This document shows, piece by piece, positions 24,352 to 59,135 of a stretch of DNA of 64,000 nt. The notes beneath the pieces were generated by a model. That model did not search any database. It worked only from the letters and a program-made list of their open reading frames with translations, and was not told the DNA's origin. The position numbers were made by a program, and so were the translations under genes. Source of the DNA: Mobula hypostoma (taxonomy: Eukaryota); NCBI RefSeq assembly GCF_963921235.1, contig NC_086108.1, forward strand, positions 61,134,001 to 61,198,000. The letters are read 5' to 3'. Each line of letters opens with the position of its first letter. Position 1 is the first letter of the stretch.

Positions 24352-26075
24352 TACAAATGTGGCCAAAAGACACAAACGATACATTTCAAGGGGAAGAAGG
24401 GATTGAGAGATGTGATCGTCAGATCTGTAATCCACAATAAAAGGATGACTTTTCATACTTTGAAAGATCTTAAGAACTGAAAAAAGGAAACTAGTTCCAA
24501 AACACCAAAAATTATACATTCAGCTTGATGGGCAAAACATGATGACAAAGCAGATGGATCAGATGTTCCTCTTATCAAAACACTTCCTATGGAAGCATTG
24601 GATTTTTGTGTATATGTTGCACAGCAAACAGGAACTAACTTGCCAATAATATAACTAAATCCCTGGAAAGAATGGACAAAGTATGGAACTGGGATATATG
24701 TTGATGATTCATAACCAATACCTCTGGTGGATTGGTTCAGTCTGACTATTGCTCCTTCTGCCATCAAAGAGCTTAATGGCCTCAACAGAAAGTTAGGTTG
24801 AATGGAAATTCACATGATTTAGCAACTGATAGTTTCCCTATGGAAAGTTCTTTTTACTCTCTGGACGTACAAGTTAATTTCAGCTACCTGGACAAGGCAA
24901 TAAGAGTGGAATGTACTGGTGGTGGTTTTAATTTAAAAAATTTAAGTATTTCAGTAGATAATGGAAAAAGATTGCATAAAAATTTGAATATGAAAGGTTT
25001 CAACAGAAACAAATGGCAATTGTTAAATATAATGAATTCCATGATAATGAGTGTTGTTTTTACATATGTATATTTGCCACATATTACACGGTGAATTACA
25101 GAAATCAATGTGAGCTGGCTTAAAAATCCATTGTATAATGTATTGTTTGATTAAGTTAAAAATAATGTGTAAATTCATATAAAGTGTTAGCTGAGGTAAG
25201 TTAAAATATGCAGAAACATAGTCATATCCCTTTAATTTCAATCTCAGGTTCAAAGTTTTAAATTCTGCAAATGCAGAAAAATCAATCTATATGAAAAGAA
25301 TGGTTTGAATACCAATATTTACAAAAAGAAATTAATGGCAAATCAATGATCAAACGCCTTAAAGCCACTTTACCAAAACACATTCAAAGTGTTCAATTGA
25401 ACAGTGAGAAAGAACTTCTGTTTTTTTTATAAAATAAAATTTGTGTTTTGATTTTTTTTCTTTTCATATTGTACAAAAGTGATAAGAGTTCTGTCTGTTT
25501 TGAAAATGTCAGAATTTGTACTCGGTTACAAATTCATGCTATTAATGTCCTGCTATAAATTATGTTGACTTTGCAGCTTCCTGAAAAAAAGAATCTTTTT
25601 TTTTCTGGTTTTGTGGGTGAATGATGAATGTACTTTTCATTAAAGGACATAGAAGAGAGGTTGATATCTGCATAGTGATTCAGCAGTGAGCACTTGGACC
25701 TTGGATGACAAATCCAAATTGCTATAAGATTCAAATACACTCTCTGTTTCTTTCTCAAGCAATTATTCCTAGCAGAACATGATTTCTTATTAAAAAGTTC
25801 CAAATCTGCAGCAAACTGTTAATGGGCCCTTTGGATAGAGAGCTCATCCCTTTCGACCTTGGCACAGTCAGCAGTTAATTCTTTAAATCAGCATCTGTCA
25901 CAATTGTTTGCACAAACGATAAGGCAAACCACTATTCCTTCATTGTTTTGTTTTTCTGCCAAAACAGAACGGCTTTGAGGGAGGTTCAGATGAGGCCGAT
26001 AGATTTTATTTTGCTCTCTGGTCCAATGTTGAACAGTTCACTGTTTTCCTGTAGCACACTCATGGCTTCAGCTGA

Positions 26076-26120
26076 TTATTTCTTGCTCTTCTTTATCTGG
26101 GCATAGAGAGGCTCTACTGC
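26076..26120 (-). CDS. DAB1: Cryptic in-frame DAB1 C-terminal peptide AVEPLYAQIKKSKK*
   Basis: GCA GTA GAG CCT CTC TAT GCC CAG ATA AAG AAG AGC AAG AAA TAA begins exactly at the acceptor in phase 0. Confidence 0.55.
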   Translation of the reverse strand, partial: AVEPLYAQIKKSKK

Positions 26121-27202
26121 CTGTGGGCAGACAGACACATGTTAAATTCAGAAACTTCTTTTTCCATCACACTGCACATGCACATTAATCTCTTTCACCC
26201 TCCTACACCAATAAATGCCACTAAACATATATAAATATCTGGAGGGATAAGGATAAAATTCATCTGCTTGGCCTGGGCAGTATTCTGAATTATGTTGTCT
26301 TGTTCTTGCCTGTTTTTGATTCCATTGAAATGAATTTAATGAAAGTTAGCCAAGTGCTATAAAATCTACGTGCCCTGATTAATGAAGTCAATCTACCTCA
26401 TAGTAATGTTTGTTCAAAAGTACTTTGAAATTCTGCTTTTAACAGTTTATTATCCATGATCCTAATGCCAGTGAGTGACATCATCAATATGTGAGCCAAT
26501 GGCTTCCTATTTCAATGCTCCTACTGGCATTAATGTGCTTTTACATTCTTATCAAACTGTCGCTTATTTTGTTTAGATGTTCTATCTGTCCGTCCTAAAT
26601 AGCTCAGGTTCAGTCTCTGTCACACTTGGCACAACGTGCTTTCTCACCATCCCTTTTTGCCCAGAGAATAAGCCTAATCTATTACCCCAGTTGAAGTCTC
26701 ACTGCCAATGTTTGACCTAATGAGTTGTATTTCTGCTCAACAACTTCATTTTCCTGACTTGTCACCAACCTAGGTTGCATTTCATTCATTCAGTCCTGAC
26801 TGACTTCATTAGCTGCAAAACTTTGCAAACCATTGATTTGAACTTTCAAATTTTAGTTTGGGAATGCTGATTCTTTATCTATTTTATTTTTAAAAAGCAT
26901 TCAGTAATAATGCAGTTTGGAGCTTAACAGACATCAATGAGTACATCCTTAGCAGGTCTACAGAACATAATGTCTAAAATGAACACGGTATGAATCCTGT
27001 TACAGTACATACATTCCACTGGTGCAGGCTCATGCAGTTATGAAGACTGATGAAAACAAGCCATGTTCAAAGAAAATATGCACACAAAAGATGAGAATAC
27101 AACCAAAACAAACCACAATCCATGGGTCGCAGTGATCAGCAGCAGTGAGATGCGTGCACACCTAGGAAAGAGAAAAGAGATACCTACCCCAACCTCTTCT
27201 AT

Positions 27203-27286
27203 CTAGCTACCGACCTGTGGGGTGAAAGAATCACCAAGCGAGTCAGCGACTGCATCAGCACTTGAAGGTGCTTCTGAACTAACAAG
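27203..27286 (-). CDS. DAB1: DAB1 last canonical coding exon (exon extends to donor at 27188)
   Basis: cttccacag|CTT GTT...GGT AGC TAG. LVSSEAPSSADAVADSLGDSFTPQVGS* versus human ...GDNISPQAGS*. Donor GGG|GTAGGT lies 15 nt after the stop. Confidence 0.92.
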   Translation of the reverse strand, partial: LVSSEAPSSADAVADSLGDSFTPQVGS

Positions 27287-29374
27287 CTGTGGAAGAGGAA
27301 AAGGAAATCTCAGTAGCAGAAATATCATAACAACACTGGAAAAAAATACAGTAATGCCAACAGTTGGCATGATTATTGATTTCAAATGACAAAATGCCAA
27401 TTTCCTCATATCCATCTTTTGTCCTTTTATCTCATCATATATCCTTCTATATTTCACTTGTACTACTAATCTAACCCATAGAATACTTCATGTGTTTGCC
27501 CTCTAATGGAAGTCTCTTCGAAACGTTTATTTCACTGCTATTTGTCGTGACTTGTGACCGCTGGTTGCCTATAATATGGGGGTGTTTACAGTCCCAAAGT
27601 CATCCATTAGCTGTATGTAGTTTTGTAATCTCTTAAAGCTATGGGAATCATTACAATATTGGAAGTATTTCCTTGAACTGTATCCATCTGCTGTTATTTC
27701 TTTTCAAAGAAAAATATAGTGTAATGCATCTTTTAAGTATTCTGCTGTGAGATCAGGAGACTTGTTAAATTCAGCACACGTCCTGTAACAGTATCCACTA
27801 CGGTTGGATTACTGACGTGATATGTTTTGTTATATTAAATAATCCATTGTATTATTCCAATATCCCAATTTTTAATACACTTAAAAACACAAAAAATGGA
27901 ATAAAGAATCCTCTCCAGTCTGCCCATCCCTCAACATGATCATGGTTTATTTAAGATGGCCTCAACTATTCTTCGGAGCTGATTGCCCATTGCTCACAAC
28001 ACCTCAGTCTTTCAAATATTTATCTGTAGGTATCTCCACCTTAAGCATATCCAGTGAGCAGGACTTGGGGACAGAGATTTCTAGAGGCTCACTACTCTCC
28101 AGAAGGAACTTATGTGTACTTCAGTTGTGAATGACTGGCCCCTTGTTTTGTATCCATCTTCCCTTGTTCATGACTGTCTCACGAGTGAAAGCATCTCAAA
28201 ATCGACCTTTTAAGCCCCTTTAGAATCTTATGATTGAGTATCATACTCAACATTCTCTTAAACTCGAAGAAATATACTGTCTAGCCTCTCTTGAAAGAAC
28301 AACCCTCTTTTTCCAGGAATTAGACTGGTGAATTTTCTTTGAACTGTTTCCAAAGCTCCCATATCGTATTTTGGACCAAAACACTGCACAGTACCCCAGG
28401 TATGGCTTCACCGACACTCTGTACAACTATAACAACACCTCTTTAATTCTCACATTCCACAACCTTTGCGGTAACGGCCTAGATATCTCAGCCCAAAACA
28501 TCTACGGTTTGCTCATTTTCATGGATGCTGCCTGACCTGTTGAGTTCCTTCAACATTTTTTGTGTGTGTTGCACTTGCCATCTTAACTACCTGTTGGACT
28601 TGCTTGTTAACTTTCTGCTTTGTAGTTCATGGACTAGAACTCTGAGATCCCTCAGAATTTCACACACTTCAGTCTGTGTCCATTTAGATAATAACCCAGT
28701 GCAGAATTTGCTGGGGGAAGGGGAATAATAAAGAATAAATCTCTCTGCACCAGTAATAAAATGCCCCCACATTACTGTTACATTGTTTAAACTCCTCCTA
28801 CTCAAGTATTTTTCATTGATTTTCATGATTTTCGCTGGTTTTTAATCTCACTTTCCCACATTTTCCTAACGCCTCAATTTATACTCTAGGATAGGAATTC
28901 TAGGAATTCGGGAGAATGAGAGAACCACCTTCTGTGCCATAAACTGTGGTGACAAAATATGCCTTTATGGTTTTTAAGCAATTCTATTAGTTATCAAATT
29001 ACACCTTCATTTGTCAGACTCCCATTCAAATTCAGCTCTGAATGACAATCAGTCCGTTCTCTGTTTGGTGAGAAGAATAATTTTAAAAGAGTCAAGGAAA
29101 CGCTCATAGTGGTACAAAATTACGGATTAAGAATCACCTACAGGGAGAACACAAGGATGCAGGTGTTAGTAATGAAAATGCCAAACCTACAAAGGGGAAT
29201 AAGTCTTCCAAGGTTAATTGCAGGTAGAGTGTGACACAGACTTTGTGATGCCTAACCTGAACACTGTTTACATGGGCCACTAAAACGTGACATCGTTCTT
29301 TAGTGCAGAGCTAACTACTATAACATTAATACAACCAAATGATGAAGCCACTCACTTGATGGCTTAATACTCAC

Positions 29375-29610
29375 AGCCTCTTGCACTCTGCTGCTGCTCA
29401 GGTTATCTGACTCAGCCTCCCCTTGGCCATCAGGTGCAGTTCCATCGGGGTGCAAGGCAGGTGACCTGGATGGGGTGTTCTGATGGCAGCATGAGGTGGG
29501 CGAGGTCTGATGGGGAGATGCTGCAGGTGTGCTCCGCTGAGAAGACGCCCCAGGTGTGTGGCGGTGTGGCGAGTCAGAAGGTGTGTGCTGATGTGGAGAT
29601 GAAGTTGGAG
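29375..29610 (-). CDS. DAB1: DAB1 penultimate coding exon with internal 27-nt repeat expansion
   Basis: ctcccag|CT CCA ACT...CAA GAG GCT|GTGAGT, 236 nt, phase 1 to 0, open throughout. Ends ...VQEA like human ...EEQEA. Not in the ORF track. Confidence 0.9.
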
Positions 29611-31808: not shown

Positions 31809-33641
31809 ATAGAAACATAGAAAATAGGTGCAGGAGTAGGCCATTCAGCCCTTCGAGCCTGCATCGCCATTCAGTATGATCATGGCTGATCATCCAACTC
31901 AGAACCCTGTACCTGCCTTCTCTCCATACCCCTGATCCCCTTAGCCACAAGAGCCATATTTAGCTCCCTCTTAAATATAGCCGATGAACTGGCCTCAACT
32001 GTTTCCTGTGGTAGAGAATTCCACAGGTTTACCACTCCCTGTCTGAAGAAGTTTTTCCTAATCTCCATCCTAAAAGGCTTCCCCTTTATCCTCAAACTGT
32101 GACCCCTCGTTCTGGACTTCCCCAACATCAGGAAAAATATTCCTGCATCTAGCCTGTCCAATCCCTTTAGAATTTTAAACATTTCAATAAGATCCCCCCT
32201 CAATCTTCTAAATTCCAGAGAGTATAAGCCTAGTCGATCCAGTCTTTCATCATATGAAAGTCCTGCCATCCCAGGAATCAATCTGGTGAACCTTCTTTGT
32301 ACTCCCTCTAAGGCAAGAATGTCTTTCCTCAGATTAGGGGACCAAAACTGCACACAATACTCCAGGTGTGGTCTCACCAAGGCCTTGTACAACTGCAGTA
32401 GTACCCCCCTGCTCCTGTATGCGAATCCTCTTGCTATAAATGCGAGCATACCATTCGCCTTTTTCACCGCCTGCTGTACCTGCATGCCCACTTTCAATGA
32501 ATGGTGTATAATGACACCCAGGTCTCGTTGCACCTCCCCTTTTTCTAATCGGCCACCATTCAGATAATAATCTGTTTTCCTATTTTTGCCACCAGAGTGG
32601 ATAACCTCACATTTATCCACATTAAATTGCATCTGCCATGGATTTGCCCACTCACCTAACCTATCCAAGTCACCCTGCATCCTCTTAGCATCCTCTTCAC
32701 AGCTAACACTGCCACCCAGCTTCGTGTCATCTGCAAACTTGGAGATGCTGCATTTAATTCCCTTGTCTGTCATTAATATATATTGTAAACAACTGGGGTC
32801 CCAGCACTGAGCCTTGCGGTACCCCATTAGTCACTGCCTGCCATTCTGAAAAGGTCCCATTTATTCCCACTCTTTGTTTCCTGTCTGCCAACCAATTCTC
32901 TATCCACATCAATACCATACCCCCAATAGTGTGCTTTAAGTTTGCACACTAATCTCCTGTGTGGGACCTTGTCAAAAGTCTTTTGAAAATCCAAATATAC
33001 CACATCCACTGGTTCTCCCCTATCCACTCTACTAGTTACATCCTCAAAAAATTCTATAAGATTCGTCAGACATGATTTTCCTTTCACAAATCCATGCTGA
33101 CTTTGTCCAATGATTTCACTGCTTTCCAAATGCGCTGTTATCACATCTTTGATAACTGACTCTAGCATTTTCCCCACCACCGATGTTAGGCTAACTGGTC
33201 TATAATTCCCCGGTTTCTCTCTCCCTCCTTTTTTAAAAAGCGAGGTTACATTAGCCACCCTCCAATCCTCAGAAACTAATCTAGAATCTAAATAGTTTTG
33301 AAAAATTATCACTAATGCATCCACTATTTCTTGGGCTACTTCCTTAAGCACTCTGGGATGCAGACCATCTGGCCCTGGGGATTTATCTGCCTTTAATCCC
33401 TTCAATTTACCTAACACCACTTCCCTACTAATGTGTATTTCCCTCAGTTCCTCCATCTCACTAGACCCTCAGTCCCCTACTATTTCCGGAAGATTATTTA
33501 TGTCCTCATTAGTGAAGACAGAACCAAAGTAATTATTCAATTGGTCTGCCATGTCCTTGTTCCCCATGATCAATTCACCTGTCTCTGACTGTAAGGGGCC
33601 TACATTTGTCTTAACCAACCTTTTTCTTTTCACATAGCTAT
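31809..33641 (-). mobile_element. CR1 LINE, 5'-truncated, relatively young
   Basis: ORFs 32827-33456 and 31880-32827 give KSPGPDGLHPRVLKE, NYRPVSLTS, YLDFQKTFDKVPH and KFADDTK with only a few disruptions; (TTTCTA) tail. Confidence 0.96.
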
Positions 33642-54790: not shown

Positions 54791-57129
54791 ATCGAATCAT
54801 AGAGAAGGATAAAGCAAACTTTTTACGTCATCTCATTACAATTTGCCCCTTATTACAGAGCAGGATATTAGGGTTTCTGCCATATTCTCCTCTTCCAGCT
54901 GAAGGTCGGTGGGAATGCACAAAATTTGGATAAGACATGAGGAGGAGTCACTTGCAATATGTCCAGAGACCGCAGATACCCGTGGAAGGCCACTGCTGCT
55001 CAAGTCACTGAAATTGAAAGTTTAGAGAGAGGAGAAAATCCTAACAATATCTCAATCTGTAAATGTTAATTTTATTTAATAACACCTTACTTTGTACTTT
55101 AGTAGTTTAAAAATATTACGTAGAAGACTGAATTTTAAGTTACTGCTTATATGCAGGAAAGGAAATAACTTGCTCTTCTGCTTTATAACTGAAGAAGCCA
55201 TTACCTTGAGATAATCAAAATGTAACCATTAGTTTTAATGTCCTCAAACAACAGAACATTTGCACACAGCAACAACAAAGGCTTTGAAGTTCCAACACCT
55301 GGCTGGAAAAGTATTGGAATGAATACTTAAGGCAAAGAACAGATTCACAGGTTCATTCTTTGTCAATAGAATGAAAAAAATCATGACAGCTATGAGGATA
55401 CACATTTATTACAGGAACTTGAGAACTCAGGCAGAGGTCTGAAACAAAAAACACAAAAAGTACTGAAGGACATCAGTGAGCTCTTGTGGAGATAGGAACA
55501 AATGAACAAATGGCATGCTGTTGACTGGGCAACAGGTCTAGACAGAACCATTTAGCCACAGGCAGCAGATACAGAGAAGCTCTCTCATTGCTTCTGCTCT
55601 CCCCAAATCCGCTCGCCTTAACTAATGCACCAATGTTTTGAATTAATTGTAAGTACTAATTTTTTTTAACATAGGTTATTTTTTATATTTTGTTTCAACT
55701 GCTTGAAAATGTCTCTAACCATCAGTGGTATTCTAAAAGCCATCAGTAGGCCATGAAAGAGACCTTAACCTCCTGTTGTCTGTTGTCACTTACAGCTTGC
55801 AGAATGATTACAGCAGTCATACTAGAAGAAGCCACACGGCTACAAAAATTTTGTTTCCCTTTGATCTGCCATGGATGGTGATCACCAGATGTGGAAGAGG
55901 CTCAGTATGATCCAGCCCGTTTAATTCTTTCTTTTTTTACAGATGCTGCCTGCCATGTTGTGCATTTCTAGCTTTCTATTTTTTCAGATTTCCTGCTTTT
56001 TAAAACAATCACATTTTTCTACCAAAGACTAACAGAAATATGAGAAAGCATTTGTCTAGATAAGTCTGTTGAAGCAGATCAGTTTTAGACAGAGGAGTGA
56101 AGAACTTGCAAAGATGGGAATCTAGAGTTCATGATCAACAAAGAAAAGTACTGTACAATACTTTTTCTGTTCCTGCAATGCATTTTTATTCCTAATTGCT
56201 GGAATTGAGCATATCTAATAGAGTTTAAATAAGACATAATATGTTAGTGCTTCATTTTACAGAAATATTTTTGATTCATTTTTTACCTTTGTTAACTTCT
56301 ATATTTATTCAGCCTGTGAATACATCTCTTCACCATGGTGCTATGTTTATAAAGTACCAAAGAGCACTGAAATTTGAGGGATTTGTCGGAGGGGTGAGGG
56401 CACATTCATGGAATACTTGAAGAGGACTGAATGAACAATATTGGAACAAATCCATTTTTGAAATAGGATTTTCAAAATGGAAACTTTATTCTTTGCTTTC
56501 TCTATTATCACCAGGGTCATTCAGCTTAGCTGGTTTCCCTGTTAGGTTTCATACTGATCTTCATGCTGATAATAAGCAGCACAGGGATTATTTTGTATCA
56601 CAAACTAACAGGTGGTTATCCCTTTTATGATCCAGCATTGAATTTTCCCTCAAAAGCTGATTGTATCATTTAGTATTAATGCACTGTTCTTGAAAATTAT
56701 ATATAACTGAATGAGGTAGTGCTCATTTAAACAGAAACGCTTTCAGAAAACAAATATGTGTTGTAACAAACTGCTTAATATCTGGACCCATGTTGGATTA
56801 TTATTATAATGTTACAACTAATAAAGGACCTTTAAAGAAAATGTATCTAATTATTGAATGGAAGTTTTCAAAATATTAATTATATTTTATATGGTTATCT
56901 GTCTTTCTCATTTAGATCACTTCCCTTCCATCAGCAAATCATGATTCTAATATGTCCTATCCCATTTCTATCTCTCTGTTATCCCGCTGGATCCATTGGC
57001 CATTCTCAGGCAGCCAGAGAGCTCGCCCACTCTCAACATGTACAATATATTCCAACTATGTTTGGGAAAATAGAAGGCACAGACTAGTACCTTATACAAT
57101 TCTGTTCCTTGAACACCATTGCCATTCCT

Positions 57130-58084
57130 CTCTGTGGGAAATTTCAGCCCTGGGGGAAAGCCTCCAACTATCCACACGATCAATGCCTCTCATTATCTTG
57201 TACACCTCTGTCAGGTCACCTCTCATCCTCCGTCGCTCCAAGAAGAAAAGGCTGAGTTCACTCAACCTATTCTCATAAGGCATGCTCCCCAATCCAGGCA
57301 ACATCCTTGTAAATCTCCTCTGCACCCTTTCTATGGTTTCCACGTCCTTCCTGTAGTGAAGTGACCAGAATTGAGCACAGTACTCCAAGTGGGGTCTGAC
57401 CAGGGTCCTATATAGCTGCAATGTTACCTCTCAGCTCTTAAACTCAATCCCATGGTTGATGAAGGCCAATGAACCGCATGCCTTCTTAACCACAGAGTCA
57501 ACCTGTGTAGCAGCTTTGAGTGTCCTACGGACTCAGACCCCAAGATCCCTCTGATCCTCCACACTGCCAAGAGTATTAACATTAATGCTATATTCTGCAA
57601 TCATACTTGAGCTATCAAAATGAACCACCTCACACTTATCAGGGTTGAACTCCATCTGCCATTTCTCAGCCCAGTTTTGCATCCTATCAATGACCCACTG
57701 TAACCTCTGACAGCCCTCCACACTACCCACAACACCCCCAACATTTGTGTCATCAGCAAATTTACTAACCTATCCCTCCACTTCCTCATCCAGGTCATTT
57801 ATAAACATCATGAAGAGTAAGGGTCCCAGAACAGATCCCTGAGGCACGCCGCTGGTCACCGACCTCCATGCAGAATATGACCCGTCTACCACCACACTTT
57901 GCCTTCTGTGGGCAAGCCAGTTCTTGATCCACAAAGCAATGTCCCCTTGGATCCCATGCCTCCTTACTTTCTCAATAAGACTTGCATGGAGTACCTTATC
58001 AAATGCCTTGCTAAAATCCATATAGACTACATCTACTGCTCTACCTTCATCAATGTGGTTTGTCACATCTTCAAAAAATTCATT
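57130..58084 (-). mobile_element. CR1 LINE RT fragment
   Basis: EFFEDVT...[15 protein letters not shown]...[14 protein letters not shown] and LYRTLVRPHLEYCAQFWS. Confidence 0.93.
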
Positions 58085-59135
58085 CAGGGTTGTAGCAAAT
58101 TGGATGAGACATTGGTTTTGTGGGAGAAGCCAGAAAGTGGTAGTAGATAGTTGTCTCTTTGACTGGAGGCCTGTGACTAGTGGTTGGCCACAGTGATTGA
58201 TGCAGGGTCTGTTGTTGTCTTCTATATCAACGATATGGTTGACAATGTGGTAAACTGGATCAGCAAATTTGCGGCTGACACCAAGACTGAGGGTGTAGTG
58301 GACAGCAAAGAAGACTATCAAAGCTTGCAGAGGGATCTGCTCCATCTGACTAATGGCAGATGGTATTTAATGAAGACAAGTGTGAGGTGGTGCACTTGGG
58401 AGGACAAACCCACATAGGACTTATACAGTCAGGGGTAGAACACTGAGGAGTGCATCGAACAGAGGGGTCTGGGAGTACAGATCCACAATTCACTGCAAGT
58501 AGCGTCACTGGTAGATAAGGTCATTAAGAGAACTTTTGACACATTGGCCTTCATAAATCAATGTAGTGAATACAGGAGTTCGGATGTTATGTTAAAGTTG
58601 TATAAGGCATTGGAGAGATCTAATTTAGAGTACTGTCTGCTATTCTAGTCACTTGCCTACAGGAAAGATATCAATAAGATTGAAAGCATTCAGAGAAAAT
58701 TTACAAGATGTTTTCAGGACTTGAGACCTGAGTTACAGGGAAAGGTTGAATAGGTTAGGACTTGATTCTCTAGAGCGTAGGAGAATGAGGGGAAATTTGA
58801 TAGAGGTATACAAAATTATGAGGGGAGTAGATAGGTTAAATGTAAGTAGACTTTTTCCATTGAGGTTAGGTGAGTCTAGATCTGGAGGTCATGGGTTAAG
58901 GGTGAAAGGTGAAATGCTTAAGGGGAACATGAGGAGGATCCTCTTTACTCAGAGGGTGGTGAGAGTGTGGAACAAACTGCCAGCAGAACTGGTGGATGTG
59001 GGGTCGATTTCAACAGTTAAGAGAAAGTTGGACAGGTACATAGACGGGAGAGGGATGAAGGCCATGGTCTGGTGCAGGTTGATGGGACAGATTAGAGGGG
59101 CTGAAGTGCCTGTGTCTGTGCTGTAGTGCTCCCTG
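58085..59135 (+). mobile_element. CR1 LINE 3' fragment abutting the previous one in opposite orientation
   Basis: ISKFAADTK and LERRRMRGNLIEVYKIMRG...FTQRVVRVWNKLP. Confidence 0.92.

Follow-up and report, generated by a model that had tools for sequence, protein, structure and literature searches.

The C-terminus of DAB1 in the ray Mobula hypostoma is almost certainly governed by a splice switch, in which two GT donors are used with one shared acceptor and the choice between them decides whether the protein ends at its canonical stop or continues into a 14-residue, EPIYA-like tail. Both junctions occur in assembled contigs, and the tail is conserved and carries a coding signature. The window, by which we mean the whole 64,000-nucleotide stretch analysed, is by sequence and synteny the 3′ part of the DAB1 orthologue, on the minus strand, and its large exon is 99% identical to DAB1 of Mobula birostris. 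For transcript evidence we compared the window with Logan contigs from 4 of 21 listed runs, whose status as RNA is a guess. X2 and X3 belong to organism A, and X4 belongs to organism B, from a separate study. Logan contigs keep the main path and drop rare forms. Papers are cited below for the parts of their text that were available. The features are as follows, with positions given in the window.

13675-2428, minus: C8B exons, downstream of DAB1 (tblastn)
25056..26075, minus: 3′UTR part of the last exon, reaching 25056 or beyond (jointless X3 contig 26119-25056)
26076..26120, minus: coding start of the last exon, 14-residue tail AVEPLYAQIKKSKK plus TAA (sequence; in-frame splice in X3 and X4 contigs)
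26121..27187, minus: last intron, distal form, 1067 nt, GGG/GTAGGT...CAG, whose mRNA retains VGS-stop (X2 joint)
27214-26121, minus: last intron, proximal form, 1094 nt, donor CAG/GTCGGT (X3 and X4 joints)
27188..27214, minus: 27-nt alternative extension between the donors, reading VGS-stop-IEEVG (sequence)
27215..27286, minus: invariant 72-nt segment of the penultimate exon, in phase 0 at both ends, finishing in ...DSFTPQ (joints 27286-29375 in X2, X3 and X4; tblastn)
29375..29610, minus: upstream exon ending ...VQEA, with a phase-0 donor (contigs, tblastn)
about 36836-36333, 39008-38880, 39891-39826, 53238-53188 and 60642-60589, minus: more DAB1 exons (tblastn)
G000:C50:61215201-61268884, beyond the window end, same strand and contig, upstream of the tail: DAB1 PTB exons (search matches)

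The last acceptor (...CCCACAG/GCA) lies at 26120 and opens the 14 codons of AVEPLYAQIKKSKK, closed by a TAA that ends at 26076. The proximal donor lies 27 nt upstream of the distal donor, within the codons for PQ/V, and is formed by the first bases of the 27-nt extension. The extension also holds the canonical stop, TAG at 27205-27203, with 15 nt between it and the GT at 27187. Use of the proximal donor drops VGS-stop and joins ...PQ in frame to AVEPLYAQIKKSKK and its stop, and a skip from the phase-0 donor at 29375 to 26120 would keep the frame as well. The arrangement is that of an alternative 5′ splice site, with the proximal junction in frame and the distal stop less than 50 nt from the last junction; since that stop is only 15 nt away, both mRNAs should escape nonsense-mediated decay. 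An earlier note on this DNA had the coordinates of the tail, acceptor, phases, stop, 15-nt spacer and VQEA donor at 29375 right. It proposed two in-frame routes to the tail, skipping the stop-containing exon or bypassing the stop; a third, the internal GT donor, was missed, and it is this one that is seen in the contigs. More AG dinucleotides follow the last acceptor at 26120-26110 (CAG GCAG TAG AG), and in several models from birds and mammals the last exon is translated in a different frame and finishes with DQQT-stop.

The proximal junction was found in X3 at a depth of 29.1, in a single 2859-nt contig with zero mismatches, and at a depth of 15.4 in X4, the second organism and second study. 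Each of these runs has one contig that joins 29610-29375 to 27286-27215 and on to the last exon. The distal, stop-containing junction (27187-26119) was found in X2 at a depth of 31.2, with a short side of 28 letters. The tally is therefore two of four runs for the proximal junction and one of four for the distal, X1 contributing unspliced pieces only. The two donors meet the shared acceptor in different runs, giving 1094- and 1067-nt joints, and the main path differs between X2 and X3, which have the same organism code and no tissue labels. Since contigs represent the main path, the tail product in X3 and X4 is probably more than a trace. The skip joint 29375-26120 was found in none of the four runs, in contigs that lose rare forms. 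Exon skipping, which the earlier note took to be the simplest route, is what placental mammals use, as a pig cDNA attests; in the ray the route observed is the internal donor.

Several other properties of the locus were recorded. Downstream of the DAB1 tail, ~12 kb away, there are C8B exons, and DAB1-C8B fusions make up 7 of the 11 top shark and ray models (P0001, P0002, P0003, P0005, P0007, P0010 and P0011); because the X3 contig covers 1064 nt of the DAB1 3′UTR with no C8B joint, the fusions resemble annotation or read-through artefacts. At 53238-53188 there is a 17-codon exon (HVGLVVEIDEEQNKTDK), placed as the tetrapod 9b/9c exons and present in two ray models only. The exon at 29375-29610 holds HTPAASPxQ-like repeats of variable copy number with many S-P sites, found in sharks and rays, including the shark homologues P0003, P0004, P0007 and P0011, and not in tetrapods. 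The introns carry a highly repeated short element, marked by a very deep contig pile-up, and reverse-transcriptase-like LINE fragments (28500-28570, 31883-32950 and 57095-58366).

The tail is widespread among vertebrate DAB1 proteins. The motif was present in 26 of the 120 first protein matches, and after a search seeded with the shrew tail region EPLYAQI was found in 69 of 219 fetched proteins, with 14 close variants; both sets contain many isoforms and were selected in part, and they indicate range, not frequency. The range spans sharks, chimaera, lungfish, caecilian, frog, lizards, turtles, birds, marsupials and placentals. The route through ...PQ is taken in 7 of 15 chondrichthyan-type top matches, and chimaera gene models include all three endings: VGS-stop, the PQ route and the skip route (P0310). 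Bird and turtle models include both the PQ and skip routes, and placental models use skipping, with P0178 as the single exception. By hand comparison, human primer P6 (PMC3232236) has GC in place of the ray GT donor, which would explain the placental reliance on skipping. Frame, length and core are the same from chimaera to mouse, which rules out chance. The conservation suspected in the earlier note goes far deeper than it guessed, into invertebrate Disabled proteins as described below.

The tail behaves as coding sequence. Silent third-base differences were inferred at E, Y and I between ray and bird, and at A and I between ray and mammal, with the amino acids of EPLYAQI unchanged; the third positions come from models that read the exon off frame, and off-frame and in-frame models are from different species. 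The +2 residue is variable in mammals (Q, K, H or R), the terminal basic run NKPKK/KKSKK is as conserved as the tyrosine, and the region before the tail is Pro/Ser/Thr-rich and poorly conserved. Rhinolophus models P0173 and P0177 have a frameshift inside the tail, and Rousettus models P0125 and P0126 have lost its stop. In the duck model P0074 an extra exon is inserted ahead of the tail. Among the fetched proteins none from human or teleosts carried the tail, in searches that were not aimed at those groups.

A tail-bearing transcript is already known, and the earlier note's description of the isoform as overlooked does not hold. The pig sDab1-Li clone published by Long et al. in 2011 (PMC3044655; EF444935) skips exon 16 and stops after 45 nt of exon 17, ending in the same tail; its protein, ABR15760.1, is P0234 in our set. 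The last-exon tail is shared by pig and ray, reached by exon skipping in the pig and by an internal donor in the ray. RefSeq predicted DAB1 "X" isoforms with the tail also exist for mouse (X3, X8 and X10), rat, macaque, gibbon, chicken and sharks. In its available sections, PMC3044655 states that sDab1-Li "only carries Y185 and Y197" and makes no mention of the tail tyrosine, the motif or its conservation; the sites probed were Y185, Y198/200, Y220 and Y232, GFP was fused at the C-terminus, and tissue measurements used primers in other exons. The tail is likewise unmentioned in the available parts of PMC12681528, PMC11048185, PMC4030455 and bioRxiv 10.1101/244905. Within the literature searched, in which Dab1 coverage was incomplete, we found no paper linking Disabled to an EPLYA/EPIYA motif, and the motif and its age apparently went unrecognised. 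Splicing of exons 7, 8 and 9b/c, regulated by Nova2, produces Dab1-E and Dab1-L (PMC3232236, PMC3044655, bioRxiv 10.1101/244905). As is proposed for the tail, splicing there determines how many SH2-docking tyrosines the protein has and of what type; the tail tyrosine is a separate C-terminal site and not one of the five tyrosines changed in the 5F mutant.

The same C-terminal motif occurs in invertebrate Disabled proteins. A profile built from 15 tail-bearing DAB1s gave 145 new family representatives, four of which carry a C-terminal EPLYA, against 0.002 expected, in every case no more than 14 residues from the C-terminus. The four are Glandiceps (a hemichordate), Branchiostoma floridae, B. 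lanceolatum and one unnamed protein; EPLYA is absent from the other 141, among which a spider entry has the weaker ESPYATIV. In a second search, seeded with the unnamed EPLYA protein, the motif was C-terminal in 9 of 75 entries and absent from 66. The nine are the query, the hemichordate, the brachiopod Lingula (EPIYATVNKPKK), the nemerteans Lineus and Tubulanus, three oysters and another unnamed protein. Entries without the tail are insect-type together with most from molluscs, ticks and echinoderms. An ESM Atlas search with the amphioxus tail returned no usable match. The ray tail is very probably homologous to the invertebrate tail. The switch itself may be equally old: B. lanceolatum models from two annotations end FT[QH]Q-VG-stop or FT[QH]Q-EPLYATVNKPPK.., diverging at the same point as the ray FTPQ, and oyster entries end ..VQNGS-stop or ..VQNGS-EPxYA, without or with the tail. 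A single inherited with/without switch is likely; we put it no higher because the comparison draws on gene models, because reading through a GT always gives Val, and because most invertebrate entries are tail-less.

The paralogue DAB2 ends differently, its representatives having C-termini with NPF-type motifs, and in this genome no EPxYA was found in 30 kb (three 10-kb stretches) downstream of the large DAB2 exon. At L001:6930-6840 (G000:C12, minus) the last DAB2 coding exon ends ...RNPFL-stop, with a candidate donor 6 nt past the stop; a stop just before the last junction is an architecture like that of DAB1.

The tail fits the consensus E-P-[ILV]-Y-A-x-[VI]-x-K, and the earlier note was right to call it EPIYA-like. 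Among bacterial effectors, BepE has EPLYATVNK at Y37, BepD has EPLYAQVNK and CagA has EPIYAKVNK (Table 1, PMC2999339). The BepE pY37 nonamer is letter-identical in 14 fetched invertebrate tails, and BepD and the lungfish tail are one residue apart. The Disabled tail thereby fits the EPxYAxV pattern of the bacterial "KK motif" class (CagA EPIYA-A/B, BepD/BepE and AnkA; PMC2999339, PMC3593179), with I for V in vertebrates. The proteins are non-homologous, and in contrast to the effectors the tail is one host-encoded copy, splice-switched and at a free C-terminus. Pragmin (EPIYA) and p140Cap/SRCIN1 (EPLYA, EGLYA) resemble it in placing the five-residue core in a Src-signalling adaptor, but their sites are internal and constitutive and are without the +3 V/I and the N-K continuation, which leaves the Disabled tail nearer the bacterial consensus; Pragmin is itself noted as not matching EPxYAxV (PMC3593179). 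What appears to be new is the age of the tail, as the ancestral end of bilaterian Disabled, together with the with/without switch in amphioxus and oyster models and the identity of the invertebrate nonamer with BepE pY37. From its sequence context, the tail tyrosine is a good candidate for a phosphotyrosine docking site for SH2 domains, and Csk, by analogy with the effectors, is predicted as its main reader at slightly better than even confidence.

We propose, and favour without great confidence as a whole, that an ancestral bilaterian tail is selected by splicing in DAB1 and that its putative phosphotyrosine binds an SH2 protein, with Csk the most likely one. The tail would be the ancestral C-terminus of bilaterian Disabled, retained in vertebrate DAB1 as a splice option. 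In the ray, the two GT donors 27 nt apart would compete, the proximal giving the tail and the distal giving the stop and turning the tail into 3′UTR; in placental mammals, the tail comes from skipping of the whole stop exon. Src-family or Abl kinases may phosphorylate the tail tyrosine, and the phosphorylated tail could then dock its SH2 partner. The DAB1 PTB domain binds receptor NPxY tails and phosphoinositides. PTB-anchored DAB1 might in this way carry Csk to membrane receptor tails and damp Src/Fyn, and the membrane recruitment makes such a brake the likelier outcome. The tail form would probably be favoured in cells that are non-neuronal or progenitors, and the VGS-stop form in mature neurons, in which Reelin depends on active Src/Fyn.

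A lesser but serious possibility is that the same switch and putative phosphotyrosine serve another reader (SHP2, Crk, RasGAP, PI3K p85 or a Src-family SH2 domain), or that Csk is held in the cytosol and Src activity rises. EPIYA-type peptides are promiscuous and bind many SH2 proteins, and Pragmin sequesters Csk (PMC3593179); the EPLYA motifs of AteA have RasGAP and Crk as partners (PMC13753828). Against this, Csk is the reported partner of BepE pY37 and CagA EPIYA-A/B (PMC3593179), the two nonamers nearest to the tail for which a partner is on record, and the EPLYA of p140Cap, an Abl substrate required for Csk binding, brings in Csk and lowers Src activity (PMC3561454).

It is unlikely that the tail works with no phosphorylation at all, as a basic/aromatic C-terminal signal for binding membranes or lipids, for nuclear import, for endocytic sorting or for degradation. 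The equal conservation of NKPKK/KKSKK and the tyrosine would suit such a role, as would the total phosphotyrosine of sDab1-Li, far weaker than the brain form's (PMC3044655). However, sDab1 and sDab1-Li shuttle alike (PMC3044655), and the acidic -3, Pro -2, aliphatic -1, Ala +1 and V/I +3 positions make up a kinase/SH2 pattern, complete in YAxI.

Readthrough or editing of the UAG on the long exon form, which would also yield the tail, is very improbable, as the earlier note had judged. UAG followed by A is a poor readthrough context. The ray has UAG-AUA, not UGA-CUAG or stop-C, the region around the stop has no stable fold (z -0.62), and splicing accounts for the tail already. For editing, neither the spliced X2 contig over the stop nor the unspliced X1 contig has a T>C change at 27204, or in X2 any other letter, in contigs that hide minor alleles. 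What speaks for readthrough is that the in-frame spacer is kept, the pig stop exon of 111 nt comprising 31 codons, the stop and 5 codons (Table 1, PMC3044655), and that ray and human P6 (PMC3232236) agree, by hand comparison, at 17 of 18 bases around the stop, but overlap with the two donors explains the conservation of the 15-nt spacer. Finally, that the proximal joint arose by reverse-transcriptase template switching at the 8-mer CCCACAGG, present at both ends of the proximal intron, and that the frame follows incidentally from conservation of the UTR, has a negligible chance of being right, given canonical GT-AG ends, main contig paths in two organisms, recurrence of the route in models from shark, chimaera, bird and turtle, an independent pig cDNA by skipping, silent-site bias and the motif at the end of invertebrate Disabled.

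Returning to the switch itself, cells other than mature neurons probably favour the tail form. The pig tail form was cloned from liver and the stop form from cortex (PMC3044655), and exons 7-8 are missing in all seven Logan-sourced tail proteins against one of two Logan-sourced canonical ones, a comparison of few, short-read sequences. Across RefSeq models overall the tail is not coupled to loss of exons 7-8 (65 with and 46 without, against 69 and 88), the trend being slightly opposite among models that are not independent. The earlier note set the isoform in Reelin signalling; the available hints point to non-neuronal or Dab1-E-like transcripts, not to the Reelin-responsive neuronal form. A scan for Nova and Rbfox elements near the donors was not clearly above background. 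Seven YCAY lie in the 200 nt below the distal donor, a count that 10% of windows reach, and TGCATG, the Rbfox element, occurs on the minus strand at 27036 and 26182, one near each end of the last intron.

DAB1 structure-function work has been built on the cDNA ending in VGS/AGS and on five tyrosines. If the tail docks SH2 proteins, DAB1 would have a sixth, far older tyrosine, and the non-neuronal or progenitor form would be a Src brake, not an inert dominant negative. Csk matters in cortical migration (PMC12681528), and the tail form is a candidate to recruit it there. The tail also bears on the question of what host proteins serve as models for bacterial EPIYA effectors. Depletion of EPxYAxV in mammalian proteomes has been reported (PMC3593179), and the use of canonical-isoform proteomes would bias such a count. 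As a tentative extension, the oldest output of Disabled may have been a splice-switchable C-terminal EPxYAxVNK phosphotyrosine that recruited Csk, predating the protostome-deuterostome split and later turned off in vertebrate neurons, letting DAB1 activate Src/Fyn for Reelin, and it may have been the host template for the KK-class EPIYA motifs of Helicobacter, Bartonella and Anaplasma effectors.
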